Shown here one piece after another: positions 870-60,081 of a stretch of 64,000 nucleotides of DNA (positions are counted from its first letter, which is position 1; the number at the start of each line of letters is the position of its first letter). The stretch lies in NCBI GenBank assembly GCA_041392955.1, contig JAWKLB010000001.1, positions 37,344-101,343 on the forward strand, read 5' to 3'. Source of the stretch: Chitinophagales bacterium (GTDB lineage: Bacteria; Bacteroidota; Bacteroidia; Chitinophagales; BACL12). The notes under the pieces are model-generated. The model saw nothing but the letters and a program-made list of their open reading frames with translations. It had not been told where the DNA came from and ran no database searches. The translations under genes were made by a program, and so were the position numbers.

Positions 870-903
870 TTTGAATATATATTGCAACCCCGCTCCGCAC
901 GCT

Positions 904-1067
904 CTGCAAAGTCTCCAGACTTGCAATAATGCACTGCTCTGCAAAGTCTCCGACTTGCAGCACGCACTACTGCTCTGCTAAGTCTTCAGACTTGCAGCAC
1001 CCACTACAGCTCTGCAAAGTCTCCGACTTGCAGTAATGCACAGCTCTGCAAAGTCTCCGACTTGCCG
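904..1067 (+). repeat. Array of 5 GTCTCC-core palindromic units (REP/BIME-like)
   Basis: Units CTGCAAAGTCTCC(A)GACTTGCAG start at 904, 939, 975, 1012 and 1046 (period 34-37 bp). The array lies directly downstream of the stop at 869. Confidence 0.9.
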
Positions 1068-2624: not shown

Positions 2625-3728
2625 ATGCCACTCTATATGGACATCCACAGCGTTCCGGGCGTCAAGTCGCGGGATGTTGCTGAAGCACATCGCATGGACC
2701 TGTTGCATCAGGGGGAATATGGATGTAACTGCATGACCTACTGGATAGATGAGGATAGAGAAACCATTTTTTGTCTGATCGAGGCTACCGACAGAGATGC
2801 CGTTAAGAACATGCATAGCAAAGCGCATGGACTGGTGCCGCATAAGATCATTGAAGTGAGCAGCAATATTGTGCAATCTTTTTTGGGCAGAATATATGAC
2901 CCGGATGATGCCGTCATGGAAAATGGCCTCAAGGTATTTGCCAATCCGGGCTTTCGTGTACTCCTGATCGCAGAGACCATGGATCAAACTCTGATGCGGA
3001 GCCACCTTGGAACGGATGCAGCAAATACCTTGATCGCGACATTCAACGCTGAGGTCAGAAAGCAGTTATTGTTGCATAATGGAAGCGAAGTGGAACACCC
3101 GGGAGAAGGTTTTCTGGTTTCTTTTGCATCTGCCTCACAGGCCGTGAAATGCACCCTGGCCATTAAGGACCAATTGCCTGAAGAAGTTGCGCAATCTCTG
3201 GATCTGCATATGGCCATCAATGGTGGTGAGCCCATTGAGAAAAGCAACAATCTGTTTGGCGATGCTATACAGTTCGGACATTACTTGTGTTCTATTTTAA
3301 GCAAAGAAAGAGTGGCATTATCTGCCCAGATAAAAGAACTCGCTTCTAAAGAACTGGTGCAAAATCAGAAAGGTCGTTTGTACATATTATCGCAAGCCGA
3401 TGAAGATCTGCTGAAATTATTGTATGCTACACTCGAAGAGAAATATGCCGACCAGTATTTCGATCTCTCTGAATTTTCCCGCGCCATGGCCATGAGCCAA
3501 ACGCAGTTGTATCGCAAGCTGACCACACTCACCGGACACGCCTCCAATGCATTGTTAAAAGAATTCCGCCTGGAAAAGGCAAAGGAATTTATGCAGAAAG
3601 GAATCCATTCTATCTCTCAGGTAGCCTTTGACACAGGCTTTTCCAGTCCTTCCTATTTTACCAAATGCTTTAAGTCCAGATACGGACTCTTGCCCATGGA
3701 ATATATTGAGCTGCTGCAACGGCAGTGA
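2625..3728 (+). CDS. Transcriptional regulator: N-terminal DUF4242 domain, central degenerate class III cyclase-like domain, C-terminal AraC-type HTH
   Basis: The N-terminus MPLYMDIHSVPG...AEAHRMDLLHQGEYGCNCMTYWIDEDRETIFCLIEA...HSKAHGLVPHKIIEV is paralogous to the two downstream genes. The middle has GEGFLVSFASASQAVKCTLAIKD and GDAIQFG. The C-terminus QVAFDTGFSSPSYFTKCFKSRYGLLPMEY is an AraC HTH. Confidence 0.7.
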   Translation: MPLYMDIHSVPGVKSRDVAEAHRMDLLHQGEYGCNCMTYWIDEDRETIFCLIEATDRDAVKNMHSKAHGLVPHKIIEVSSNIVQSFLGRIYDPDDAVMENGLKVFANPGFRVLLIAETMDQTLMRSHLGTDAANTLIATFNAEVRKQLLLHNGSEVEHPGEGFLVSFASASQAVKCTLAIKDQLPEEVAQSLDLHMAINGGEPIEKSNNLFGDAIQFGHYLCSILSKERVALSAQIKELASKELVQNQKGRLYILSQADEDLLKLLYATLEEKYADQYFDLSEFSRAMAMSQTQLYRKLTTLTGHASNALLKEFRLEKAKEFMQKGIHSISQVAFDTGFSSPSYFTKCFKSRYGLLPMEYIELLQRQ

Positions 3729-3888
3729 TAGCAGAAGTATTGTACACCAAGTGTCTGCATGAATTTTACCATCCTTTGGACAGATTTTACCATGCCGGTG
3801 CCATGGAATGGTTGATTTGTTACAGCCGGGGAGCATTTCCCGCTCTTTCTTTGCTCTTACAAAAACAAACAAATCAAAATCAATAATT

Positions 3889-4173
3889 ATGAAAACGTAT
3901 TTGATCCAAAGGAATCTTCCCAATGCGGGAACCCTCACACTCGAACAAAAAATTTCCATTGCACAACGCTCCTGCGCCGTGATAGAAGAACTTGGCCATG
4001 ACCATTTGGTTTGGGACCACAGCTATATCACCGCTGATAACCTGTGGTGTGTATACCAGGCAGAAAATGAAGAAGTATTGCGTGAGCATGCGCGCCGCGG
4101 TCCTTTCCCGCTCGACAATATCTTCGAAGTGAAAGGAACTTTCAGTCCGGCAACTGCAGAATTAGTAGCATAA
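3889..4173 (+). CDS. DUF4242 domain protein (SCO4226-like), stand-alone, cytoplasmic
   Basis: I moved the start to the in-frame ATG at 3889 (MKTYLIQRNLP...), because the upstream extension is low-complexity. The sequence is about 94 aa with WDHSYITADNLWCVYQAENEEVLREHARRG and has no signal peptide. Confidence 0.65.
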   Translation: MKTYLIQRNLPNAGTLTLEQKISIAQRSCAVIEELGHDHLVWDHSYITADNLWCVYQAENEEVLREHARRGPFPLDNIFEVKGTFSPATAELVA

Positions 4174-4207
4174 AAAATTATTCAGGCAAAAAGTAAAACG
4201 TACTACA

Positions 4208-4828
4208 ATGAAAAAAAGAACAAGCATACTCGCGATCCTCTTTATACAATGCATCGCGCTTTCCGTTCATGCACAAACAAGTGCAGATAATTCCGGCACA
4301 CAGCATTTATATCTCGATGTCCATAAACTAGAACCCGGCTCCGTAACTTTCTCCGATGTGGAGGCTGCACATCAGAAAGATCTCGCAACAGAGGCAAAAT
4401 ATGGAGTTCAGTTCCTGAAATTCTGGGTAGATGAAAAAGAAGGTTTGGTATATTGTTTATCTTCTGCATCGGATAGTGCGGATATCAAACAAACACATGC
4501 CGAAGCACATGGTTTGATACCCGATCATATTTATGAGGTTACCGATGGCACCGCCGATCAGATGTTATCCGGCAAGAAATTGTTTTTGGATATCCATTAT
4601 CTGGGTGCAGGAAATGTAACAGCAACCGCGGTAGCCGGTGCACACGAAAAAGATCTTGCAACGCAATCAAAATACGGTGTGCACTTTATCAACTATTGGG
4701 TAGATGAAGCCGAAGGTGTTGTGATCTGTCTTTCACAGGCCGACGAAGCAGAAGATGTGATCAAAACACATACAGAAGCACATGGCCTCATCCCGACAGA
4801 AGTATTGGAAGTGCAGGAAGGTATGTAA
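4208..4828 (+). CDS. Secreted protein with two tandem DUF4242 domains
   Basis: Signal peptide MKKRTSILAILFIQCIALSVHAQ. Two internal repeats follow: LYLDVHKL...AAHQKDLATEAKYGVQFLKFWVDEKEGLVYCLS...HAEAHGLIPDHIYEV and LFLDIHYL...GAHEKDLATQSKYGVHFINYWVDEAEGVVICLS...HTEAHGLIPTEVLEV. Confidence 0.7.
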   Translation: MKKRTSILAILFIQCIALSVHAQTSADNSGTQHLYLDVHKLEPGSVTFSDVEAAHQKDLATEAKYGVQFLKFWVDEKEGLVYCLSSASDSADIKQTHAEAHGLIPDHIYEVTDGTADQMLSGKKLFLDIHYLGAGNVTATAVAGAHEKDLATQSKYGVHFINYWVDEAEGVVICLSQADEAEDVIKTHTEAHGLIPTEVLEVQEGM

Positions 4829-4896
4829 CCGGACAGCAATGCATTACTTTCTATCACCATCTGCCCATTAAAATATTTGGAGTAAAATATGATTAA

Positions 4897-4932
4897 ATGG
4901 CACCCGTTATGTCGGGTGCCATTCGTTTTTTT
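4897..4932 (+). terminator. Rho-independent terminator
   Basis: ATGGCACCCG-TTATGT-CGGGTGCCAT is a perfect 10-bp stem, followed by TCGTTTTTTT. Confidence 0.75.
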
Positions 4933-4948
4933 CATCCGCTCTTCCGCT

Positions 4949-5239
4949 CTGCAAAGTCTCCAGACTTGCAGTAATGCACAGTTCTGCAAAGTCTCCAGAC
5001 TTGCAGCACGCTCTGCTCTGCAAAGTCTCCAGACTTGCAGCACGTTCTGCTCTGCAAAGTCTCCAGACTTGCAGCACGCTCTTCCGCTCTGCAATGTCTC
5101 CGACATGCAGTAATGCACAGCTCTGCAAAGTCTCCAGACTTGCAGCACGTTCTGCTCTGCAAAGTCTCCGACTTGCAGCACCGCTCTTCCGCTCTGCAAT
5201 GTCTCCGACATGCAGAACCATTTCCTGGTCTCCGACCAG
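4949..5239 (+). repeat. Array of 8 GTCTCC-core palindromic units plus one short-stem relative
   Basis: Units start at 4949, 4984, 5018, 5052, 5089, 5123, 5157 and 5194. A short relative, CTGGTC-TCC-GACCAG, lies at 5225-5239. Linkers are drawn from three recurring sequence types. Confidence 0.9.
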
Positions 5240-5374
5240 CTTATAAAGCCTTCGGTATTATACATATTAAAGTACAAAAGCATCACACGCTTTTCATATT
5301 CTACTCCAATTGTAACATCTTTTAGTTACATTTGATATGCGCATGTAAATTCAAATTCATTAAAAAATAATATT

Positions 5375-7540
5375 ATGTTTTTTTACCGTTCAGCAAGTGT
5401 CCGGAATGCCTTATTCTTTTTTTGCATCTGCGTTTTATCTACTGTTGGCAATGCCCAGGCACCGGCAATACAATGGGAGCATTTATATTGTGATGGTCCC
5501 TATAATGATGCGACTTTTGTTCTGATGAATGATGGTGGAGCTGTTATTGGAACTTCTGCAAAAACAAATATATATTGTGAAAAATCCGAATATGGGGAAG
5601 GTGGTTATGATTACTGGATATATAGAATAGATTCAATTGGAAATATCATATGGCAAAATGTGATCGGAGGCTCGGGTGATGATAAACTTTCTTGTATAAA
5701 TAAAACCAGTGATGGCGGATTTATTTTAGCCGGAGCTTCAAATTCGCCGATATCAGGAGATAAAACTGAACCTCGTCAGGACTTGACCTATCCTTTTTCT
5801 GATGATATGTGGATTATTAAACTCGATTCAGTGGGAAACATACAATGGCAAAATACAATTGGTGGAAATTATGGAGAATGGGATGCATATATTGAACAGA
5901 CTACGAGCGGCGCTTATATATTGAGCTGCACTTCAAATTCTCATTTATCGGGAGATAAAATGGAAGATGTAATTGGGGGCACTACAAATGACGATTTTTG
6001 GATATTAAAGCTGAATCCGTCCGGAAATATCATGTGGCAAAATACAATTGGCGGTACGGAAAATGATTGGGTAAGTGCCGTGCATCAATTGCCCGATGGT
6101 GGTTATATATGTGCGGGTACATCCGCATCTCCGATATCCGGTGATAAAACAGAAGCCAATTTAACTCCAGGGTATACTGATTACTGGATCGTTAAATTGA
6201 ATAATGGCGGTGATGTTGTATGGGATAAAACCCTTGGTGGTTTATATAGTGATTGGTCAGCTGATATCATACGCGAAGATGATGGCACATTTACATTAGG
6301 AGGTTCGGGTGGTAACTATTTTGGTTTGAATTTTCAAGTGCTCCGTTTAAGTGCGGATGGTGAACTTATTTGGGAACATATATTGGATGCACCTAATTCG
6401 GATTTGAAAAGTATAAGCAAGACAATGGACGGTGGGTATATATTGGGAGGCTCTTCCAGTACGGATTATTGGACAGATAAAACGGATCCGAATAAACCTG
6501 CAAATGATTATGGATGGGAAGGTTGGGATATGTGGGTGGTTAAAACAGATTCTATGGGCAACCATGTTTGGGATAATGCCTTGGGTTCCGGTGATGATGA
6601 TGGCGTTGCATTTGTTCGGGAGACGGCAGATGGTGGATATCTGGTGAGTGGTTATGCCGGACATGATGATGAAGGAGATATATCTGATAAAGCTTCGTTA
6701 TACGACGGAACCTGGATCGTTAAATTGGCGAGTGCCGCCTGTGTGCCAACCATTGAATTATGCAATGGTATAGATGATAATTGCGATGGTATTGCCGACA
6801 ATGGTGTTGTAGAGAGCATTGTTGTATCGCCTGCCGGTCCGGTAACGTTTTGCAAAGGAGAGAGCGTTGACCTGAACGTTGTATCCTATACAGGCACCGG
6901 TGTGCAATGGAAAAAAAATGGTGAAGATATTCCAGGTGCTACGGACATAACTTACACGGCCACCAAAACAGGATTATATACATGTCAGACAAGCAGCGAT
7001 TGTGGCTTTGCTATTTCTTCCATCATCGATGTGACAGCAAACAAAATTCCAAATGCCAGTATTGATGCAGATGGACCTGTCACATTTTGCAGTGGTGATA
7101 GTGTAACATTGATCGAGACTCCATTTGGCGGATGCTCCTATCAATGGTATATAGGACATACACCAATACCCGGTGCAACAAGCACCTCCTTTGAAGCTTT
7201 TGCTGATGGCAATTACAGATGTGCCGTAACCAAAGTGGCCACGGGATGCACGGGAATTTCCAATAAGATCACTGTATCAGTTCCGTGCAGGGAAACAAAT
7301 GATCCATCCTTGCAAGATGTATTGCTATACCCAAATCCCACGTCAGATCTGTTATTTGTATCCACTTCTTTTACAGCTTTTGAATACCAGGTTACAGATA
7401 TGCCGGGTGCATTAATAGCAACCGGCATTTCGGATGAGAGCAACGCCATTTGTCCTGTTTCTGCATTGCAACCGGGTTGTTATTTTCTTACCTGTATATC
7501 AAATAACAAGATCTGCACAGTATCCTTTATTAAACAATAA
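5375..7540 (+). CDS. T9SS-secreted repeat (propeller-like) protein with MopE-like Cys motif, two Ig-like modules and type-A sorting domain
   Basis: It has a signal peptide. About 8 repeats of the pattern DGG(Y/F)IL.G.S.S..SGDKTE....DYWI.KL...GN..W...IGG follow. Then come CNGIDDNCDG and two modules of FC.G(E/D)SV.L...W..NG..IPGAT. The C-terminus LLYPNPTSDLLFV... is typical of a T9SS CTD. Confidence 0.8.
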   Translation: MFFYRSASVRNALFFFCICVLSTVGNAQAPAIQWEHLYCDGPYNDATFVLMNDGGAVIGTSAKTNIYCEKSEYGEGGYDYWIYRIDSIGNIIWQNVIGGSGDDKLSCINKTSDGGFILAGASNSPISGDKTEPRQDLTYPFSDDMWIIKLDSVGNIQWQNTIGGNYGEWDAYIEQTTSGAYILSCTSNSHLSGDKMEDVIGGTTNDDFWILKLNPSGNIMWQNTIGGTENDWVSAVHQLPDGGYICAGTSASPISGDKTEANLTPGYTDYWIVKLNNGGDVVWDKTLGGLYSDWSADIIREDDGTFTLGGSGGNYFGLNFQVLRLSADGELIWEHILDAPNSDLKSISKTMDGGYILGGSSSTDYWTDKTDPNKPANDYGWEGWDMWVVKTDSMGNHVWDNALGSGDDDGVAFVRETADGGYLVSGYAGHDDEGDISDKASLYDGTWIVKLASAACVPTIELCNGIDDNCDGIADNGVVESIVVSPAGPVTFCKGESVDLNVVSYTGTGVQWKKNGEDIPGATDITYTATKTGLYTCQTSSDCGFAISSIIDVTANKIPNASIDADGPVTFCSGDSVTLIETPFGGCSYQWYIGHTPIPGATSTSFEAFADGNYRCAVTKVATGCTGISNKITVSVPCRETNDPSLQDVLLYPNPTSDLLFVSTSFTAFEYQVTDMPGALIATGISDESNAICPVSALQPGCYFLTCISNNKICTVSFIKQ

Positions 7541-7555
7541 CCCGCTCTGCACGCT

Positions 7556-7775
7556 CTGCAAAGTCTCCGACTTGCAGCAAACCGCTCTGCAGGCTCTGCT
7601 AAGTCTCCAGATTTGCAGCACTATTCCCGGGTCTCCGACCCATTTTTAACACGCACTGCAAAGTCTCCAGACTTGCAGCACGCACTACTGCTCTGCAAAG
7701 TCTCCAGACTTGCAGCGCTAATCCCGGGTCTCCGACCCATTTTTAACACGCTCTGCTATGTCTCCAGACTTGCAG
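7556..7775 (+). repeat. Composite array: 5 long GTCTCC-core units interleaved with 2 short-stem units
   Basis: Long units start at 7556, 7596, 7656, 7693 and 7753. Short GGGTC-TCC-GACCC hairpins followed by ATTTTT lie at 7629-7641 and 7726-7738. The higher-order period is 97 bp. Confidence 0.9.
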
Positions 7776-8212: not shown

Positions 8213-8680
8213 ATGGAACGCAAAACGCAAGTGCATGCCGAAGCGGGCAGACAGGATCTGCTGATCACACGTGTATTCGAACTTCCTGTGGATCTGTTGT
8301 ACCGCGCTTTTACGGAAGCGGATATCGTACAACAGTGGATGAACACCCATGTGATCAAACTGGAAAGTAAGACACATGGCAGCTGGCAATTTGAAACGCT
8401 GGACCCATCGGGCAATGTTGCCTTTAAAGCGAACGGGACCATACATATACTTATACCGGAAGAAAAACTGGTGCGCACCTTCGAAATGGAAAATGCTGCC
8501 TTTGGTGTGCAGTTGGAAATTCTGGAATTCAAATCCATCGATGAAAATACAAGCAGTTTGCAGATGCATTCCATTTATGAATCAGTGGAACTTCGAGATG
8601 CCATGTTGAAATTACCTTTTGCGTATGGCATAAATATGGCCCACGATCGTTTGCAGGAAATTCTTCAATCATTAAAATAA
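8213..8680 (+). CDS. SRPBCC superfamily protein (Aha1/activator of Hsp90 ATPase-like domain)
   Basis: The size, the position immediately after ArsR, and the LITRVFELPVDLLYRAFTE...WM pattern fit the Aha1_N/SRPBCC family. Confidence 0.7.
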   Translation: MERKTQVHAEAGRQDLLITRVFELPVDLLYRAFTEADIVQQWMNTHVIKLESKTHGSWQFETLDPSGNVAFKANGTIHILIPEEKLVRTFEMENAAFGVQLEILEFKSIDENTSSLQMHSIYESVELRDAMLKLPFAYGINMAHDRLQEILQSLK

Positions 8681-9085: not shown

Positions 9086-9643
9086 ATGAAAAAAGAATTA
9101 TCCGCAAAAGATCGCGACGCCCTGATAGAAATAGTACACAGGCGTTTTGCCAAACATATGCACAGGCATAAAGGCATAACATGGGATGATGTGCTGGTCA
9201 GACTGGAAAAAAATCCGAAAGCAATCCACGCTTTACAGGCTATGGAAGAAACTGGCGGAGAGCCGGATGTGATAGAAAGAGATAAAAAAACCGGTGCGAT
9301 CGTATTTTATGATTGCGCAGAGGAAAGTCCGAAGGGCAGACGTAGTTATTGTTATGATTATGAGGCCCTGATGTCGCGCAAAGAGCACAAACCCAAACAC
9401 AGTGCATTGGAGGCTGCTGCTGAAATGGGGATAGAATTATTGGATGAGGAGCAATACAAGTTTTTGCAGCAATTCGGTCCTTTCGACAATAAAACTTCCA
9501 GTTGGGTAAGAACACCGGATGCCGTTCGCGAGCTCGGCGGAGCCATTTTCGGTGATTGCCGTTTCGGTCGCATTTTCATCTACCACAACGGCGCCGAATC
9601 GTATTATGCAGCAAGAGGTTTCAGGGGGAGATTGGTGGTGTGA
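9086..9643 (+). CDS. DUF4256 domain protein
   Basis: I moved the start to the in-frame ATG at 9086 (MKKELSAKDRDALIE...). The long ORF-track extension (8711) overlaps the DoxX gene. Motifs GGEPDVI...YDCAEESPKGRRSYCYD and TSSWVRTP are present. Confidence 0.6.
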   Translation: MKKELSAKDRDALIEIVHRRFAKHMHRHKGITWDDVLVRLEKNPKAIHALQAMEETGGEPDVIERDKKTGAIVFYDCAEESPKGRRSYCYDYEALMSRKEHKPKHSALEAAAEMGIELLDEEQYKFLQQFGPFDNKTSSWVRTPDAVRELGGAIFGDCRFGRIFIYHNGAESYYAARGFRGRLVV

Positions 9644-9765
9644 AGAAATGAAAAATGAAAAATGAAAGATGAAAAATGAAAAATGAAAAATGTCCGCCGG
9701 TAGGCGGATCACCCGTAGGGTGGAAAGATGAAAAATGAAAGAGGAAAAATGAAATCGGTAATCAC
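9644..9765 (+). repeat. Period-7 array (AAAAATG)n interrupted by a conserved GC-rich double hairpin
   Basis: There are 7 heptamers at 9644-9692. TCCGCC-GGTA-GGCGGA lies at 9693-9708 and CACCC-GTA-GGGTG at 9710-9722. Six more heptamers lie at 9724-9765. The 37-nt core recurs at 59832-59868. Confidence 0.85.
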
Positions 9766-19312: not shown

Positions 19313-19942
19313 ATGCGCACATTGCTTGTCTTTGTTTTTGGGATTCTCAGCAGCACTCTCCTTAGATCTCAGGTCGGTTTAGGTGTTATTCAGGTGGATG
19401 TACAAACCACTTTTCAGATAGACCTTTTCGCAAAGTTGAGTGATACTATTCCGGCAAAACAATTGAATTTTGGTTTCGACGAGGAATCGTATACTATGGA
19501 TCTTGCAAATAGGGATTCGGTGGACACATGGTTTCATCCGGAAGCTTATTTTCCCGATTACGATATTTTTCTGCTGAGATGCATGGATACCCTGAGCGGC
19601 AGATATTTAATAGAGGTCGATAGTGGAACACATGCGCAATATTGGATCCCTGCCGCTGCTACCTATACATTCAGAAGTTGGAAAGATTTCCTTGAAAATG
19701 TGCTTACGATAGAGCGCTCAAATCCACAACCTATCTATACAGTACCTGATGAAAAGGCTTCTACATTGAAATATGATGGCCAGGATTGTTTTAGTGTAAA
19801 ACAAGTGCAGGGAGCCTGGATGGAGATCACCACCTTCGGACCATGTCTGGAGAATGAATGGACCGACAGTACACTTGCCTCCGGCTGGATCAAATGGCAT
19901 GATGGCCATACATTATTGATCAACTATTACCTGATCTATTAA
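19313..19942 (+). CDS. Hypothetical secreted protein
   Basis: Signal-like N-terminus MRTLLVFVFGILSSTLLRSQ. No family recognised. Confidence 0.5.
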   Translation: MRTLLVFVFGILSSTLLRSQVGLGVIQVDVQTTFQIDLFAKLSDTIPAKQLNFGFDEESYTMDLANRDSVDTWFHPEAYFPDYDIFLLRCMDTLSGRYLIEVDSGTHAQYWIPAAATYTFRSWKDFLENVLTIERSNPQPIYTVPDEKASTLKYDGQDCFSVKQVQGAWMEITTFGPCLENEWTDSTLASGWIKWHDGHTLLINYYLIY

Positions 19943-19949
19943 TCCCGCT

Positions 19950-20049
19950 CTGCAAAGTCTCCAGACTTGCAGAACTTTATTCAGGTCTCCGACCTGCATG
20001 CTCTGCAAAATCTCCAGACTTGCATAACCTTATTCAGTTCTCCGACCGT
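19950..20049 (+). repeat. Two long plus two short GTCTCC-core palindromic units
   Basis: Long units lie at 19950-19972 and 20003-20025. The short unit CAGGTC-TCC-GACCTG lies at 19982-19996. A degenerate unit CAGTTC-TCC-GACCG lies at 20035-20049. Confidence 0.85.
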
Positions 20050-22120: not shown

Positions 22121-23293
22121 ATGCAATTTTTACCTTTGTATGGATATATGCCAGGCTACACAGGACCCGAAGACATATTATATATTTCCGGAATAGTATT
22201 ATCTCTCTTCCTTTCTTTTATTTTATTTTCTAAAAATAAAAAGACGACGCCCGATATCATCCTCGGGATATGGCTGTTGGTTTCCGGTGCCGATCTGTTC
22301 ACCTTCTTTTTATTTTTTACCGGTGCATATACGCACATGCCCGCTGTTACGGCGCTTGGTTTCCCTATGCCACTCCTGCAGGGACCCTTCTTATTTTTAT
22401 ATACAAAGTATCAAACCGGAAACAATGCTTTTCGCAGGAAGGACCTTTTGCATTTTGCACCGGCTTTGTGTTCCCTTCTGATGTTTTTCCCTTTTTATTT
22501 GCTTTCATATGCCGATCAGGTAAGGGTGTTTCAGGAAGAAGGGAAAGGATATATGGTGCAGATGTCGGTCAATGTGATCGCCATTATGGTATCCGGCGTA
22601 ATATATATTGTTTTGTCGATGCGGCGCTTGCTTTCTTTTCGCAAAAAGATCGTCGATCGCTTTTCCAATACGGATAAGATCCGTTTCAACTGGTTATTAT
22701 ATCTTATTATTGGTATTGCATGTATTTGGGTCGTGATCCTGTTCGTAGGAGAGGACCACTTGATCTTTGCTTCTTCGGCATTATTTATTTTATGGCTTGG
22801 GTATTACGGTATTAAGCAATCACAGGTGTTTAATCAGCATGCCGAGGTGGACTGGACCTATTTTACAACGAGCCAAGACCATGTGCAGGAAAATGAGATG
22901 GATGGATCCGAGCACACTAAGGTAAAATACAGCCGTTCTGCGCTCCAGGCAGAAGAGGCAATCAGGATACACAATGCGCTGCAAAAACGGATGGCGGAGC
23001 AAAAACCGTTTACGGATCCGGAACTCACGCTCGATGCACTTGCAGCCATCTTACAGGTACAACCCGACCACCTGTCGCAGGTGATCAACAGCCTGGAAGG
23101 AAAAAATTTCTACGATTATATCAATACCCTGCGGGTAGAAGAGTTCCTGCGCAAAACGCAGAATGGGGATGACATCCGTTATACCTTGCTTGCACTCGCA
23201 TTCGACTGCGGGTTCAATTCAAAGGCATCCTTCAACAGGAACTTTAAGAAGATCATGGGCACCTCGCCGAGTATGTATTTGAATAAAGGTTAG
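22121..23293 (+). CDS. Membrane-anchored AraC family transcriptional regulator
   Basis: The N-terminal half has about 6 TM segments. The C-terminus LLALAFDCGFNSKASFNRNFKKIMGTSPSMY is an AraC HTH. Confidence 0.8.
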   Translation: MQFLPLYGYMPGYTGPEDILYISGIVLSLFLSFILFSKNKKTTPDIILGIWLLVSGADLFTFFLFFTGAYTHMPAVTALGFPMPLLQGPFLFLYTKYQTGNNAFRRKDLLHFAPALCSLLMFFPFYLLSYADQVRVFQEEGKGYMVQMSVNVIAIMVSGVIYIVLSMRRLLSFRKKIVDRFSNTDKIRFNWLLYLIIGIACIWVVILFVGEDHLIFASSALFILWLGYYGIKQSQVFNQHAEVDWTYFTTSQDHVQENEMDGSEHTKVKYSRSALQAEEAIRIHNALQKRMAEQKPFTDPELTLDALAAILQVQPDHLSQVINSLEGKNFYDYINTLRVEEFLRKTQNGDDIRYTLLALAFDCGFNSKASFNRNFKKIMGTSPSMYLNKG

Positions 23294-23510
23294 GGGTTAA
23301 GGGTTAGGGGTTAAGAGTTATGGGTTAGGTGTTAGGGCCGTTATTGTCCATAGTACTTACTTTATGTCAGACTGTGACTGCGACTGCGACTGAGACTGGA
23401 CCATTGGTCATGAGGGAAAGATAATTGTTTAAAGCACTGCCTTCACATGCAGGCAGACATTCACCACTCACCCCCAAAGGGGTCCAAAGGACATTCACCA
23501 TTCACCATTT
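23288..23510 (+). repeat. Mosaic intergenic element: telomere-like (GGTTAGG)7, AGTACT anchor, (GACTGY)5, mini-hairpin pair, (CATTCAC)n
   Basis: GGTTAGG GGTTAAG GGTTAGG GGTTAAG AGTTATG GGTTAGG TGTTAGG lies at 23288-23336 and contains the AraC stop codon. AGTACT lies at 23352-23357. GACTGTGACTGCGACTGCGACTGAGACTG lies at 23369-23397. CCCC-AAA-GGGG and GTCC-AAA-GGAC lie at 23472-23492. Confidence 0.85.
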
Positions 23511-38536: not shown

Positions 38537-38657
38537 CAGCGGAGATCGTTGTAAAGTCGGGATTTCCGGAGGTCGGGACGTCTTGATGTCTGCTTATAAA
38601 CGGATACAGGAATTTCAAGTTGCCTATTGTCCACCGCAATTGCCCACTCTCTATCAG

Positions 38658-38741
38658 CTATTCACCATTCACCAATCACTATTCACCATTTACTATTCAC
38701 CATTCACCATTCACCATTCATCTTTCCTCATTCCTCATTAC
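38658..38741 (+). repeat. Twelve-unit period-7 array (CYATTCA/CATTCAC type) ending 13 nt before a start codon
   Basis: The units are CTATTCA CCATTCA CCAATCA CTATTCA CCATTTA CTATTCA CCATTCA CCATTCA CCATTCA TCTTTCC TCATTCC TCATTAC. Confidence 0.9.
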
Positions 38742-47309: not shown

Positions 47310-47605
47310 AATTCAATGTATCCGGATCAAAAACGATCAATACGGACTTATGTTGTACAAGGTATGCAATTAATGTAAAGAATAAAAAGTGCGGCGTCTC
47401 TTGAATGGAAAATGGCGCATGGTTGAAAAGTGAAGTCCCATTTTATAGCCGGTGAGCTGAACTCACTAATCCTGATTCCGCAAGAAGTCGCGGTTACATC
47501 TCCTTTAAATAATTAGTAATGATATTTAAATCGGCCCTGACCTTCCTAAGAGTCCTTTGGACTTTACCATTTCAAGTTATGTCTACCAATAACGACGAAC
47601 AAACG

Positions 47606-47825
47606 CACTATAGAAATTCCCCCTTGACCAGCCCACACACCCTGACCCCTGACCTTTTCTCAATACATAAAACAATAATAACCATCTAACTCACTACAGA
47701 AATTCATTCTTGAATAGGATGCACACCCTGACCCCTGACCTTCTCACAATACATAAAACAATAACAACCATCTAACTCACTATAGAAATTCCCCCTTGAA
47801 TAGGATGCACACCCTGACCCCTTTA
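47606..47825 (+). repeat. 86-bp tandem repeat, 2.5 copies, abutting the stop codon of the tail-fibre-like gene
   Basis: Units lie at 47606-47691, 47692-47777 and 47778-47825 (truncated). Each contains CACCCTGACCCCTGACC. Confidence 0.9.
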
Positions 47826-50800
47826 TTACTTACTTATCACCATCTGTTTCGTTGCAACCACTTTACCATCCACAACCAATGAATACGCATACGTACCACT
47901 TGCCATATTGCCGGATTCTATAACCAGATGTGTTTCATCACACGCGATCGGAATAACGGTGATCACTTTGCCTTCAGCACTGTTCACGATCATGATGCTT
48001 GCATCTCTGCAATCTTTGGGAATACGGAATGGTATCATAGTGGTATTATCAAATGGATTTGGAATATTCTGACCCAATAATGCATTTTCAGGATCAGCAG
48101 CCGAAACGCTTATGATGCCGTCATTGAGTTTTGCATCGGAGGCCTGCGCACTGAGTTCGGCTATTTGTGCCTTTAATGCCTCAATTTCTTTTTGCTGTTC
48201 TTCCAACTGTTCATTTTGCGCAGTGTTTACTGAATCTAATTCCTGTGCAGCTTTTACCAGTGGCACCACAAATTCCGCGTAACGCAATCCGTATAAATTA
48301 TTTTCATTTTGCGGTTTGTCCACTCCGGAAAAATCATAACCGATCTGCTGTGCTGCTTTCTCCACATCCTGCGCAATAAAGCCGGTATAAGTGATCTGTG
48401 CCTTTGCATCCAATGCTTTTTTATTGATCTGTTGAGTAACCTTGTCTTCGGAATAAATGCTGTCGCTTAGGATGCGATCCTCTTCCAGATGTCCGCTTAA
48501 AGCTTCCATTTTTAATGTATATGTTACCGGTTGAAGCAATTTGATGAACTCCAATCCCGGTACATCTTCCTGCACATTCTCTTTCATTCTTTCATCACTG
48601 ATATTTGTCCAGCCTGCATATCCGCCGATACTGGTCACTGAGCTATTCCCGATACGCACCTGATTGTCGGCATCGGTCCTTGCATTATAGCCAAGTGCTG
48701 TACTGTTGGTGAGTGAGAATGCGCCGTTATTTGCCGCATAACATCCCAGATACGTGCAGTTCGTATTGAAACTGTAAGAGCTGCCCGTTGACAATCCGAT
48801 ACCAATATTATATGAACCGGTGGTGTTGAATTCCAGAGCACCATTCCCCAGGGCAACCTTATTATGACCGGTGCTGTTATAATATAATGCCGACGCGCCA
48901 ACAGCGACATCAAACCCGCCGCTGGTATTAGAGTACAAGGCAGATGATCCCACACCTGTATTGGAACCTCCGTTGACGTTGCTGTACAAAGTGCGATATC
49001 CTATTGCTGTATTAATGGAACCGGTATTGGTGTATAAACTTTGATATCCTATCGCAGTATTATTCGAACCATTCGTATTGGAGTAAGATGCATTAAACCC
49101 GATGGCCGTATTGAACCATCCGTTATTATTCAGATAACTCGCACGGATACCCATAGCTGTATTGTATGAACCATTCACATTACTGTATAGTGTGGAGTAA
49201 CCAACGGCGGTATTTCCTGCGCCGGTAGTATTGCTGTATAAACTCTGACTTCCAATGGCAGTAAATTCATTTCCTGTTGTTGAACTGTATAAGGCATTTA
49301 CGCCCAATGCAGTAATTCCAATCCCGGTTGTATTATTATATGCTGCATAAGAGCCAACACCCGTGTTGCTGTCGCCGGTAGTATTGCTGCGCATGCTGTG
49401 GTCGCCGATCGCAGTATTACCATCACCATCTGTATTGTTATACATGGAAAATAAACCCATGGCCGTATTTGAATTTCCCGTTTGATTGGAATAGAGTGCA
49501 GATGAACCAAATGCTGCATTGAACGATCCGGTAGTGTTTAATTGCAGTGCCGAGTTTCCTGTGGCTGTATTGGAACTCCCGGTGGTATTTGTATACATGG
49601 CACGAAAACCTATTGCAGTATTCAGATCGGCCGTTGAATGATATAATGCCTCACTACCAACGGCAGTGGAATATGAATTTCCGGCTAAAGTGTAAGAAGC
49701 TTTATGGCCTATTGCCGTGTTATTGGTTCCGGTGGTGAGATTAAATAACGTAGAATCCCCCACGGCAACATTGTAGGTGGAAGTCCCGGCGTTGTATAAA
49801 CTATAACTTCCCACGGCTGTGTTATTCCAACCATATACACTGGTAGATAAAGCATATGCGCCGAGAGCTGTATTAAATTGTCCGCTCGCATTTTCTTTCA
49901 GGGAATAGGAACCAACGGCGGTATTGTATGAACCGATGCCATTGCTGTACATCGACAGGGCACCGATGGCCACATTTTCATTTCCGCCATGCGTATTATA
50001 CATGGAAAAAGTGCCGAAGGCGCTGTTGTTATTACCATCTTCATTTAAATACAGCACATCTTTACCCATACCGGTATTATTTGAACCTCCAACATTATTA
50101 TATAATGCCTCAGCACCCACGCCAACATTATTCAAGCCGGTGGTATTTGAATACATGGCATGACTTCCTATTGCTGTATTCTGACTACCCGTTGTGTTTA
50201 CCCACAAACTGGCATTTCCTACCGCGACATTTTCACTACCACTTGTATTATAGAGCATGGCCCATTCACCCAATGCAGTATTTTCATTTCCGTCTATATT
50301 GAATCCGAGTGCCGACAATCCAACAGCAGTATTCAGGGATCCCGTAGTATTGGTTTGCAAACTTCCGCTGCCTACTGCGGTATTGGAGTATCCTGTAGTA
50401 TTGGCATACATAGCATTTGATCCGATGGCCGTATTATAGTATGCAGTTTGATTAGCACGCAATGCCTGACTGCCTAAAGCGGTATTTTCTTCTCCTGTTG
50501 TATTATACCACATACTCTCATTTCCCACCGCGACATTATCATTGCCCGTTGTATTGTACGTCATGGCATTTTGCCCGATCGCAGTATTTCTATTGCCCAT
50601 TGTATTGAAAGCCAGTGTGGAAATACCAACGGCAGTATTCAGAGAACCGGCAGTATTATATTCCATGGAGCCACTCCCGACGGCAGTATTGGAATAACCA
50701 TCTACGTTATCGCGTAATGCGTCCGAACCTACTGCTGTGAGATAATAATGTGTTTCATTTGTTTTCAATGCATTATTTCCAATGGCTGTATTGCTGCCTC

Positions 50801-51788
50801 CGGTTGTGTTGTTGAGCATTGCAGAACTCCCCACTGCCACATTACTGCTTCCTGTTGTATTATTATAAAATGCAGAATCTCCTGCAGCAAGATTGTCTGT
50901 GCCGGAATTCCCCAAAGCGATACCTGCTCCGATAAATATATTTTGTGACCCCTGATTGGAAATAAATCGTTTATTATCCAGAAATACATATCCGTCGAGA
51001 TACAGATCCTTCCATGTATTTACCGTGCTTCCTAAACTATACGTAAAGGTGGTATTTGGAACAAGTGATTGATTGATCGCTGTTGCGCTCAGGTTAGATA
51101 AACTTGTATTCGCACCGCCACCACCACCTGCAACAGTGGTCCAGGATAAAATACCTGCGCCGTTCGTTGTCAGTACCTGTCCGCTTGTACCGTCCGCTGC
51201 CGGTAATACCCAAATGAAATTTGCAGCGATATTATCTGCTGCCTTGAAACCGGTATAATTATTTCCGTTCGCCGCTAATTCATTGAATCGCAATTCACCT
51301 GTTGCTCCGGCCAGCACATCGTAAGGTTTAATGCGGATGGCTCCGGGCACAGTGGGTGTGATATCTATCATGGCTCCCGGTGTTGCGGTGGAGCCGAGAG
51401 ATAATTTATTTTTGATATAGGCATTGCCGCCGGCTGTCGACCAGAAAACAGGTGCTCCCGTTCCGTCGCGGAACTCATACCGCGAATTCGTGTTGCTGAA
51501 AACCAAACCATAATTCGGATTTCCGGAATAGCGGAAAGCATAATGATCACCAGCAACCAAAAAATCGGCGTTGCCGCTGAAACTCAGATCGCCATCGAGT
51601 CCAAAAGCCGAATGATCGGCACCGGTTCCGAATTGGGAAATGCCACCTTCTACCTGCAAAAGAGTGGATGGCGTCACGGTTCCTACGCCCACATTTCCAC
51701 TGGCAGGAAATGTATTTGTTTGTGCACCAAGGAACAGCGGCGAGATAAAAAGGAAAACACTACATAAGCGGCGGAGCATTTTTTTCAT
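47826..51788 (-). CDS. Tail-fibre-domain adhesin-like protein: signal peptide, about 900 aa of NTA.G repeats, S74-type intramolecular chaperone domain, coiled coil, T9SS sorting domain
   Basis: The start is set at the Met giving MKKMLRRLCSVFLFISPLFLGAQT. There are dozens of roughly 14-aa repeats (NTAVG..AL..NTTG..). The motif GGYAGWTNISDERMKENV...YTGFIAQDVEKA...YGLRYAEFVVPLVKAAQEL matches the phage tailspike chaperone domain. The C-terminus QNIPNPFDNTTMIPF...GTYAYSLVVDG is a T9SS CTD. Confidence 0.8.
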   Translation of the reverse strand: MKKMLRRLCSVFLFISPLFLGAQTNTFPASGNVGVGTVTPSTLLQVEGGISQFGTGADHSAFGLDGDLSFSGNADFLVAGDHYAFRYSGNPNYGLVFSNTNSRYEFRDGTGAPVFWSTAGGNAYIKNKLSLGSTATPGAMIDITPTVPGAIRIKPYDVLAGATGELRFNELAANGNNYTGFKAADNIAANFIWVLPAADGTSGQVLTTNGAGILSWTTVAGGGGGANTSLSNLSATAINQSLVPNTTFTYSLGSTVNTWKDLYLDGYVFLDNKRFISNQGSQNIFIGAGIALGNSGTDNLAAGDSAFYNNTTGSSNVAVGSSAMLNNTTGGSNTAIGNNALKTNETHYYLTAVGSDALRDNVDGYSNTAVGSGSMEYNTAGSLNTAVGISTLAFNTMGNRNTAIGQNAMTYNTTGNDNVAVGNESMWYNTTGEENTALGSQALRANQTAYYNTAIGSNAMYANTTGYSNTAVGSGSLQTNTTGSLNTAVGLSALGFNIDGNENTALGEWAMLYNTSGSENVAVGNASLWVNTTGSQNTAIGSHAMYSNTTGLNNVGVGAEALYNNVGGSNNTGMGKDVLYLNEDGNNNSAFGTFSMYNTHGGNENVAIGALSMYSNGIGSYNTAVGSYSLKENASGQFNTALGAYALSTSVYGWNNTAVGSYSLYNAGTSTYNVAVGDSTLFNLTTGTNNTAIGHKASYTLAGNSYSTAVGSEALYHSTADLNTAIGFRAMYTNTTGSSNTATGNSALQLNTTGSFNAAFGSSALYSNQTGNSNTAMGLFSMYNNTDGDGNTAIGDHSMRSNTTGDSNTGVGSYAAYNNTTGIGITALGVNALYSSTTGNEFTAIGSQSLYSNTTGAGNTAVGYSTLYSNVNGSYNTAMGIRASYLNNNGWFNTAIGFNASYSNTNGSNNTAIGYQSLYTNTGSINTAIGYRTLYSNVNGGSNTGVGSSALYSNTSGGFDVAVGASALYYNSTGHNKVALGNGALEFNTTGSYNIGIGLSTGSSYSFNTNCTYLGCYAANNGAFSLTNSTALGYNARTDADNQVRIGNSSVTSIGGYAGWTNISDERMKENVQEDVPGLEFIKLLQPVTYTLKMEALSGHLEEDRILSDSIYSEDKVTQQINKKALDAKAQITYTGFIAQDVEKAAQQIGYDFSGVDKPQNENNLYGLRYAEFVVPLVKAAQELDSVNTAQNEQLEEQQKEIEALKAQIAELSAQASDAKLNDGIISVSAADPENALLGQNIPNPFDNTTMIPFRIPKDCRDASIMIVNSAEGKVITVIPIACDETHLVIESGNMASGTYAYSLVVDGKVVATKQMVISK

Positions 51789-51929
51789 AATCATGATTTT
51801 TGTGCATTGCATAATAGAATAAGGACAAACACAAAAATATCCGCCCGCTCAGAGCCATGAAATACCCGAATCCGAGTATGGGAAGGTTAGGGCTGGGGCA
51901 GGAGCAGGGGAAGTCACAGTCACAGTCGG

Positions 51930-52160
51930 ACTCAATTATGAGCTCTTATTGTTTAAAAAAGTACTGCCCTGACCAATGACTTCTGACCCCTAACCCTTGT
52001 CATATCGCAGCAGCAGCCCAACTCAATTATGTATACTTATCCTTTTAAAAAGTACTGCCCTGACCCCTGACCCTTGTCATATCGCAGCAGCAGCCCAACT
52101 CAATTATGTGCACTTATCCTTTTAAAAAGTACTGCCCTGACCCCTGACTCCTCTCACCTT
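51930..52160 (+). repeat. Tandem repeat (91, 77 and about 61 bp units) upstream of the tail-fibre-like gene
   Basis: Units start at 51930, 52021 and 52098 with ACTCAATTATG...AAAAAGTACTGCCCTGACC... Units 1 and 2 differ in length by 14 nt, i.e. two heptamers. Confidence 0.9.
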
Positions 52161-52203: not shown

Positions 52204-52236
52204 CGGCCCTAACCCCTAACCCCAACCCCTAACATT
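52204..52236 (+). repeat. C-rich telomere-like heptamer array (CCCTAAC type)
   Basis: The sequence is CGGCCCTAACCCCTAACCCCAACCCCTAACA. The junction CGGCCCTAAC is shared with the inverted array at 23321-23340. Confidence 0.85.
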
Positions 52237-59831: not shown

Positions 59832-59909
59832 AAATGTCCGCCGGTAGGCGGACCACCCGTAGGGTGGAGGAATCAGTAATCAGTAATCAGTAATAAGTAA
59901 TAGTTAATA
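59832..59909 (+). repeat. Second copy of the GC-rich double hairpin, followed by (AGTAATC)6
   Basis: AAATGTCCGCCGGTAGGCGGACCACCCGTAGGGTGGA lies at 59832-59868 and has one substitution versus 9688-9724. Heptamers AGGAATC AGTAATC AGTAATC AGTAATA AGTAATA GTTAATA lie at 59868-59909. Confidence 0.85.
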
Positions 59910-59942: not shown

Positions 59943-60012
59943 AGTACTCATTATTTCATCAGTCCTAACGCTTAACACCTAACCCCTAACCCATAACTCT
60001 TAGCCCATAACC
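59943..60012 (+). repeat. AGTACT anchor plus C-rich telomere-like heptamer array, inverted copy of 23288-23357
   Basis: AACACCTAACCC(CTAACCC)ATAACTCTTAGCCC matches the reverse complement of 23296-23327, except for one extra heptamer and one substitution. Confidence 0.8.
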
Positions 60013-60081
60013 CCCTTCCCTCCACCGAAGCAAAAAACATTTTCAGTAATCATACACACTCTTAGTAGCACCCCGACCAAT

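Follow-up and report, generated by a model that had tools for sequence, protein, structure and literature searches.

Introduction

The closest known system to the repeats described here is that of the REP, BIME and REPIN elements with their RAYT (TnpA-REP) Y1 transposases (PMC6006769, PMC2817692, PMC3733652). REP clusters reiterated in tandem and head-tail dimers have been documented (PMC3733652), and in Bacteroidetes the RAYT subclass 2.6 has atypical hairpin repeats that lack the GT[AG]G motif, as do the class 3 repeats (PMC6006769). A further background to changes in paired arms is that template switching in palindromes yields multibase compensatory changes in one step (PMC8794818).

REP-like hairpin repeats as such are already known; the REP-like hairpin repeat family that we report here from Chitinophagales is previously undescribed. 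We analyzed a stretch of 64 kb from a Chitinophagales MAG (hereafter, the window) and found that one intergenic array, in which two units share a paired substitution, probably arose by tandem, head-to-tail amplification of a two-hairpin, REP-like element that is intergenic and lineage-specific within Chitinophagales; taken jointly with the origin and spread proposed below, this is in our judgment the best explanation of the locus. A second point of reference is the BOX elements of Streptococcus pneumoniae, which are modular (boxA-boxB(n)-boxC) with modules of ~45–60 nt. Like BOX, the present element is modular and intergenic, and between its fixed ends a hairpin-forming module is repeated in tandem a variable number of times, but the element comes from another phylum, the BOX modules are longer and no sequence relation between the two is expected.

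Results

Four intergenic arrays of hairpin units

The window contains four intergenic arrays with a total of 20 long units and five short hairpins, and no unit was found in its remaining 44 kb. The unit cores GTCTCCNGAC and GTCTCCGAC gave 10 and 11 matches, all on the + strand, where 0.12 and 0.10 were expected, so chance does not come close to explaining the repeat. Array 2 (4936..5215, + strand), which carries the paired substitution, sits between the terminator of gene 4208-4828 and the next gene (5375-7540). This terminator (4896..4933, +) is a canonical, bidirectional intrinsic terminator with an 11–12-bp stem followed by a T run. The array opens with the left boundary CCGCTCTTCCGCT, continues with eight long hairpin units at a period of ~34–36 nt that form a 3-unit higher-order repeat, and is closed by a terminal short hairpin, here termed hairpin 2 (5225..5239, +; CTGGTC-TCC-GACCAG). 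Each long unit, or hairpin 1, is a 22–23-nt imperfect palindrome, CTGCAAAGTC-TCC(A)-GACTTGCAG, and the linkers measure 11–15 nt.

Array 1 (888..1067, +) consists of five units, at 904, 939, 975, 1012 and 1046, with pair-breaking changes in the first and the last. Array 3 (7542..7775, +) begins immediately past the stop codon of 5375-7540 and combines five long units (7556, 7596, 7656, 7693 and 7753) with two short hairpins (7629 and 7726), both of which read GGGTCTCCGACCC followed by ATTTTT. Array 4 (19944..20049, +) likewise begins immediately past a stop codon, that of 19313-19942, and its long units at 19950 and 20003 alternate with an intact short hairpin at 19982 (CAGGTC/GACCTG) and a decayed one at 20035. 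Distant arrays have linker types in common (arrays 1 and 2 both contain TAATGCACNGYT, and arrays 1 and 3 both contain CACGCACTACTGCT), which indicates that multi-unit pieces have been dispersed or homogenized.

The protein encoded at 4208-4828 is identical to NCBI MEZ5012688.1, with a nearest homologue outside the source of no more than 68% identity, and the window encodes T9SS-tailed proteins and other Bacteroidota features. Three adjacent genes with SCO4226-like/DUF4242 domains (2625-4828) lie directly upstream of array 2, namely an AraC-type fusion (2625-3728), a single-domain gene (3808-4173) and a tandem-domain gene (4208-4828).

Other repeats are also present in the window. Short tandem heptamer/hexamer runs (TGAAAAA, GGTTAGG, GACTGC, ATTCACC, CCCTGAC, CCCTAAC, AATCAGT and CCTAACC) lie between genes at 9641-9692, 23284-23337, 23370-23398, 23492-23509, 38653-38739, 47640-47654, 47726-47740, 52058-52073, 52207-52233, 59871-59901 and 59964-60014; they recall the STRR-type heptamer repeats of cyanobacteria and fill intergenic spaces where hairpin arrays are absent. 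A second dispersed element, at 9693-9723 and 59837-59867, is formed by two adjacent G+C-rich hairpins (TCCGCC-GGTA-GGCGGA and CACCC-GTA-GGGTG), whose loops contain GTAG; its two copies differ by one base and each is flanked by heptamer runs. Two longer tandem repeats, 47587-47822 (86 bp, 2.7 copies) and 51983-52148 (77 bp, 2.2 copies), each with CCCTGAC runs, flank the two ends of a 1328-aa gene (47826-51812, − strand) with a Peptidase_S74 chaperone domain.

Comparison of the units with REP elements

REP sequences are imperfect palindromes of 20–40 nt, and the units fall within this range, at 22–24 nt with a 9–10-bp stem, with or without a 1-nt bulge. Their folding energies run from −8 to −15.5 kcal as RNA and from −5.2 to −10 kcal as DNA, with z-scores of −2.5 to −6. 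They are extragenic, dispersed and multi-copy, at four loci in the window and as four solitary units on the related contig L036. The resemblance to REP extends further, as the sequence is lineage-specific and strictly extragenic, many copies occur per locus and several loci per 20 kb, copies are present or absent between relatives, subfamilies are set apart by compensated stem changes, and tandem clusters are reiterated together with flanking DNA.

There are also differences. The canonical 5′ GT[AG]G foot of REP sequences is absent from the units in the window, where the + strand reads GCT-CTGC...GCAG-CAC and the − strand GTG-CTGC...; a subfamily on L036 has the outer stem CTAC...GTAG, which is not the canonical 5′ GTAG arrangement. 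While BIMEs and REPINs alternate in orientation or form inverted pairs, the arrays here are head-to-tail without exception, and each of the 21 core matches lies on the + strand. A second, different hairpin is part of the element. No cognate transposase of the kind that makes up a REPtron, a Y1 (HUH) gene with repeats on either side, was found within the 64 kb: neither Y1_Tnp nor any other transposase was detected in the ~60 ORFs of the window, and none lies beside the L036 units. Rfam gave no match in the 64 kb at gathering thresholds, and within the array only a chance-level one (E = 0.89); searches for the unit sequence in the literature and in the supplement of PMC6006769 returned no relevant match. 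In the exact form seen in the window, the family is almost absent among 185,579 species-representative genomes, judging by the matches listed.

Two units of array 2 carry a paired change

The initial annotation of this DNA had read the units at 5089..5110 and 5194..5215 (both + strand) as CTGCAATGTCTCCGACATGCAG, and direct inspection of the sequence confirmed this. The two units are identical, and the second is the final long unit of the array. Their arms also remain complementary as described, in that the right arm, when reverse-complemented (CTGCATGTC), agrees with the left arm (CTGCAATGTC) but for a single extra A. The 22-nt form that had served as reference (CCGAC) does exist, but it is a minority form in array 2, found only at 5157-5178. 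Since five of the eight units are 23 nt long (CCAGAC), the variants differ from the majority by three changes: A7T, loss of the loop A14 (the 22-nt loop form) and T18A. The variant folds at −8.3 kcal as RNA and −5.3 as DNA, against −8.1 and −5.2 for the 22-nt wild type. Both variants were also said to share a linker context, and both are indeed preceded by ...GCTCTTCCGCT, but a third unit with that linker (4949-4971, after CCGCTCTTCCGCT) is wild type.

Independent support for these sequences came from unitigs of run SRR32022410 (Logan assemblies of public sequencing runs). Unitig L011 confirmed the first two units of array 2, and unitig L033, identical over 5186-7733, confirmed the last variant unit together with the terminal hairpin. 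The internal variant copy at 5089 lies outside this confirmation because the SRR32022410 contigs break inside the array. Over 2579 nt, L011 differs from the window at two positions (2961, C>T; 4202, A>C), so a closely related but non-identical strain is present in SRR32022410.

When the whole array was folded as RNA (4930-5250), the terminal hairpin and the two variant hairpins were the only ones retained in the centroid. Wild-type arms, being identical, are free to pair with those of any neighboring unit, and T7:A18 makes the two variant hairpins the only self-specific ones.

The two variant units derive from one event

The variant had been put forward as possible evidence of selection unless its two copies proved to be one recent duplication of a single mutated unit, and this is essentially what we found, with no independent occurrence in the sequences compared (see below). 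Array 2 has a higher-order repeat of period 105 with 2.7 copies and 87% matches (Tandem Repeats Finder, TRF), with three units per period. Ordered by linker type (L), with U for wild-type and V for variant units, it reads [L4-U][L1-U][L3-U], an extra [L3-U], [L4-V][L1-U][L3-U], [L4-V] and then hairpin 2, and the unit in the first L4 context (4949) is the wild-type one. A 70-nt block at 5041..5110 (+), made up of linker CACGTTCTGCT and a unit followed by linker CACGCTCTTCCGCT and a variant unit, recurs one 105-bp period downstream at 5146..5215 (+); the upstream block may be the source or the copy. In a pairwise alignment the two blocks differ solely by two 1-nt indels, and this near-identity indicates that the mutated unit and its neighbor were copied once in the 105-bp register. 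The simplest history shown by this comparison is one mutated unit and one block duplication. Block-wise growth is also seen in arrays 1, 3 and 4, with periods of 71, 97 and 53 bp (TRF).

The variant CTGCAATGTCTCCGACATGCAG is absent from the rest of the 64-kb window and from related contigs. It was also absent among the matches listed in exact-pattern scans of the 185,579 species-representative genomes and of JGI metagenomes, in which both covarying positions were left free.

A neutral path leads to the paired change

In the left arm AAA stands opposite TT of the right arm, so with three A's against two T's the position of the lone 1-nt bulge is not fixed. When only A7T is introduced, the bulge moves and the folding energy stays the same (−8.1 vs −8.1 kcal as RNA; −5.2 vs −5.2 as DNA). 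T17A (22-nt numbering) by itself destabilizes the fold by 2.2 kcal as RNA and by 0.8 kcal as DNA, and the double change restores the energy. Since A7T is free, a neutral two-step path exists (A7T, then T>A), and the pair is not strictly compensatory. Unit 7753 has T7 without A18, which indicates that the first step can arise alone, and A5T, found in three units, is likewise energetically free.

We then enumerated all double substitutions of the unit. Between 1.4 and 1.6% of them pair mutually with an energy within 1 kcal of wild type, and 8–9% leave a minimum free energy (MFE) at least as good as that of the wild type. For the five independent double-mutant units in the window, the probability of at least one compensating pair is 0.07–0.08, and that of at least two of five being energy-neutral is 0.07, so that a compensating pair is only marginally beyond chance.

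Uncompensated arm changes, which had been expected to be rare, are not. Against the single compensated event, the window holds five pair-breaking changes, at 904 (G23A), 1046 (A22C), 7753 (net loss of one A-T pair) and 20003 (G8A and G23T), and one G-T wobble at 7596 (C17T). The expected depletion of stem changes relative to linkers was not observed either, with ~0.030 changes per nt in the arms and ~0.033–0.040 in within-type linkers by a hand count on a tiny sample. The initial annotation had interpreted the paired change as a sign of a stem under selection that would not be expected from neutral decay. Since a neutral mutational path is available and the two copies of the double change form one duplicated lineage, this interpretation is only partly supported: what stands is retention of the stem at the level of the family (see below). 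As a single lineage, the paired change is compatible with hairpin constraint yet is not evidence for that constraint, and the array-2 variants add one data point, as weak evidence, to the case for a maintained stem.

The pairing could also have arisen as a by-product, with no selection, if both substitutions were written in one replication template-switch (quasipalindrome) event in which arm was copied from arm. An imperfect palindrome inside a tandem array is a classic substrate for this, and the two substituted bases complement each other exactly at mirrored positions, like the mirrored complementary hairpin substitutions described for quasipalindrome correction (PMC8794818). Arm copying should often also remove the adjacent bulge, however, and here the bulged A is retained. 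The neutral path with A7T first explains the data equally well, and its intermediate, T7 without A18, exists (7753). Unlike the element families considered above, a template switch is a mutation mechanism and is not demonstrable from one sequence; we regard this origin of the pair as possible but unlikely.

The stem is retained across the family

Exact-pattern scans of genome and metagenome contigs, with both covarying positions free, listed 30 loci. Among these, 21 lie in one conserved Betaproteobacteria/Alcaligenaceae coding sequence (flanks ...TC-CTGCAAGGTCTCCGACGTGCAG-GACCT...) and eight are isolated single matches in unrelated sequence; the sole true relative among the loci listed is L003 (Chitinophagaceae MAG LC078), which has a single unit. 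The 22-mer CTGCAAGGTCTCCGACGTGCAG is conserved within a protein-coding gene of many Betaproteobacteria/Alcaligenaceae MAGs (contigs L001, L002, L005, L007, L008, L010, L014-L016, L019-L021, L023-L025, L027-L029 and L031); it is unrelated to the repeat and dominates the scans. Three family-pattern scans of viral contigs returned no match, and the six-frame pseudo-proteins of the array had none in a protein database.

Related metagenome contigs were fetched via the Crp-like gene that adjoins the L003 unit, and the sequences CTGCAAAGTCTCC and CTACGAAGTCTCC name the family units in Chitinophagaceae. Solitary copies with the same CCCGCT boundary are present on L003, L035, L036 and L037, at up to four per 8.4 kb (L036). 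In the L035-L037 set the element reads CCCGCT/CCTAGCT-CTGCAAAGTCTCCGGACTTTGCAG-TAATATGCT-TATAGTTTTCAACTATAA, with a perfect 10-bp stem and a second hairpin, and a subfamily CCCGCT-CTACGAAGTCTCCGACTTCGTAG-CTATTATGCT-CCTGGTTTCAAAACCGGG has three copies in 8.4 kb. The relatives' subfamily replaces CTGCAAAGTC...GACTTTGCAG with CTACGAAGTC...GACTTCGTAG, which amounts to two fully compensated pairs.

To compare the stems we used an alignment (A2) of 16 distinct hairpin-1 sequences that was registered by hand and padded with N, as a MAFFT alignment (A1) had misplaced the loop gap. In A2, 95.3% of cells were paired, vs 20–38% with the partners slid. Three pairs had changed on both sides, G3:C to A:T, A5:T to G:C and A7:T to T:A, of which the first two define the CTACGAAG subfamily and the third is the variant under study. 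Hairpin 2 reads CTGGTC/GACCAG, GGGTC/GACCC and CAGGTC/GACCTG at three independent loci in the window. Variants seen at more than one place were all pairing-neutral, whereas each of the seven pair-breaking variants was seen once, mostly in units at array edges (Fisher one-sided p = 0.019). The variants at 7596 (C17T) and L036:8213 (C1T) are G-U compatible. Together, the family-level comparison of these sequences supports the view that the stem is maintained.

A segment of ~140 nt that includes the unit is present in L003 and L049 and absent from L050, with a CCGCT junction; the comparison is anchored by TTTAAAAT..CCGCT and CTCCTTTTTCC, and the alignment is poor outside a few anchors. A target-site duplication was rejected as a general feature, as CGCT lies on both sides of the L036:220 element but was unseen at the L035 and L037 copies. 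Orientation is uniform per contig (four of four arrays in the window; five of five units in L036/L037), for which the chance is ~1/128 if orientation were random. GC skew is positive on the + strand of the window and negative on that of L036/L037, with gene orientation dominating in such short contigs, and gave no consistent replication-strand rule across the window and L036/L037. For a comparison of orthologous arrays, the sole contigs with identical proteins were the Logan unitigs, which are of the same strain and broken inside the arrays.

A further repeat was noted in the Chitinophagaceae contigs, formed by a hairpin ATACGAAGCG...CGCTTCGTAT, a T run and then ATTATATGGCCTTTGGCCATAG (L035 ~1470-1545; L036 ~4590-4625 and 8270-8330). 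It sometimes directly adjoins CTACGAAG units.

RNA hairpins, protein sites and spacer arrays

A retained stem would also be expected if the units were RNA hairpins in 3′ untranslated regions, acting as terminators, as 3′-end protection or as a multi-hairpin decoy for an RNA-binding factor, with the double substitution selected. Arrays 1, 3 and 4 start 0–20 nt past a stop codon, in sense to both flanking genes, and a stem-loop in this position, with a T run after two short-hairpin copies (GGGTCTCCGACCC then ATTTTT), is reminiscent of Rho-independent terminators. The two G-U compatible variants, the covariation at the family level and the z-score of the folded array RNA (−6.1) are all in line with an RNA. 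Yet no long unit was flagged as an intrinsic terminator, only the short hairpins at 7629 and 7726; hairpin 1 has no U tract (T tract in DNA), and array 2 lies downstream of a genuine, strong canonical terminator. On L036, two of the four units are antisense, between well-annotated minus-strand genes, which together with the position of array 2 speaks against a sense-RNA role shared by all copies. The window retains five pair-breaking variants, Rfam gave no match, and the local hairpins are not the ensemble centroid because wild-type arms are interchangeable between units. We therefore consider an RNA function distinctly unlikely as the explanation for the arrays.

The same symmetry might instead mark dyad-symmetric double-stranded DNA sites for a protein, either a regulator or a nucleoid protein, with the paired change keeping the dyad. 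Both hairpins and both subfamilies share the sequence of the core GTC-TCC(N)-GAC, and not just its pairing, and several HTH regulators are encoded nearby. But the site is asymmetric, with a bulged arm, a non-palindromic center (TCTCC) and a strict strand orientation, and the same unit recurs in several genomes and in four or more unrelated intergenic settings. A protein that reads specific bases would not tolerate the free covariation of the outer arms, and we consider such a site highly improbable. A CRISPR-like or other spacer-acquiring array, suggested by the regular ~34-nt period and the palindromic 22–23-nt repeat, can be dismissed, as the linkers are 11–15 nt long (vs unique spacers of at least ~26 nt) and recur within and between arrays, and no cas genes or domains were found in the window.

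Discussion

Amplification of a REP-like two-hairpin element thus remains the explanation that we favor, and the solitary copies in relatives suggest how it may have proceeded. These copies consist of a 5′ CCCGCT boundary, hairpin 1 (CTGCAAAGTC-TCCN-GACTT(T)GCAG), a short linker and a second hairpin. The window arrays keep the CCCGCT boundary and have the terminal short hairpin in the position of hairpin 2, from which it follows that the ancestral element would have been a two-hairpin one of ~60–70 nt. Hairpin 1 and its linker of 11–15 nt would then have been multiplied by slippage or unequal recombination, the arrays growing in multi-unit blocks. In array 2, one unit may have gained A7T, which is free, and then T18A, which re-paired with the new T; alternatively, both changes may have been written in one intrastrand template-switch event. 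Either way, the mutated unit was subsequently copied once, with its neighbor, by the duplication in the 105-bp register.

The most likely reason for retention of the hairpin across the family may be that a single-stranded DNA hairpin is what the propagation machinery recognizes. Uniform orientation and presence/absence at CCGCT are reminiscent of REP-like elements that HUH Y1 enzymes process as single-stranded DNA hairpins, and the leading candidate enzyme would be a Bacteroidetes-type, REP-associated Y1 transposase; no transposase is encoded in the 64 kb, and mobilization by a RAYT is putative. The one candidate empty site has CCGCT at its junction, NGCT precedes every array and every solitary copy, and the carried linker ends in GCT, so that it would regenerate the target. 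A more specific version is that a strand-specific, two-hairpin Chitinophagales element is mobilized as single-stranded DNA and inserts 3′ of CCGCT, with arrays growing by repeated insertion plus slippage and with an atypical, subclass 2.6-like RAYT that reads the conserved GTC-TCC-GAC tip as the enzyme; we regard this combination as very unlikely.

Two points bear on how such arrays are read. Identical "compensatory" variants within one tandem array have to be reduced to events before covariation is claimed for them, and a substitution beside a sliding bulge is not the same as true compensation. The family itself is unusual for its strictly head-to-tail amplification and its two-hairpin architecture. 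Should a cognate Y1 transposase be identified, the family would provide a tractable example of the poorly characterized, atypical REP systems of Bacteroidetes, and would account for the intergenic breaks in short-read assemblies of these genomes.
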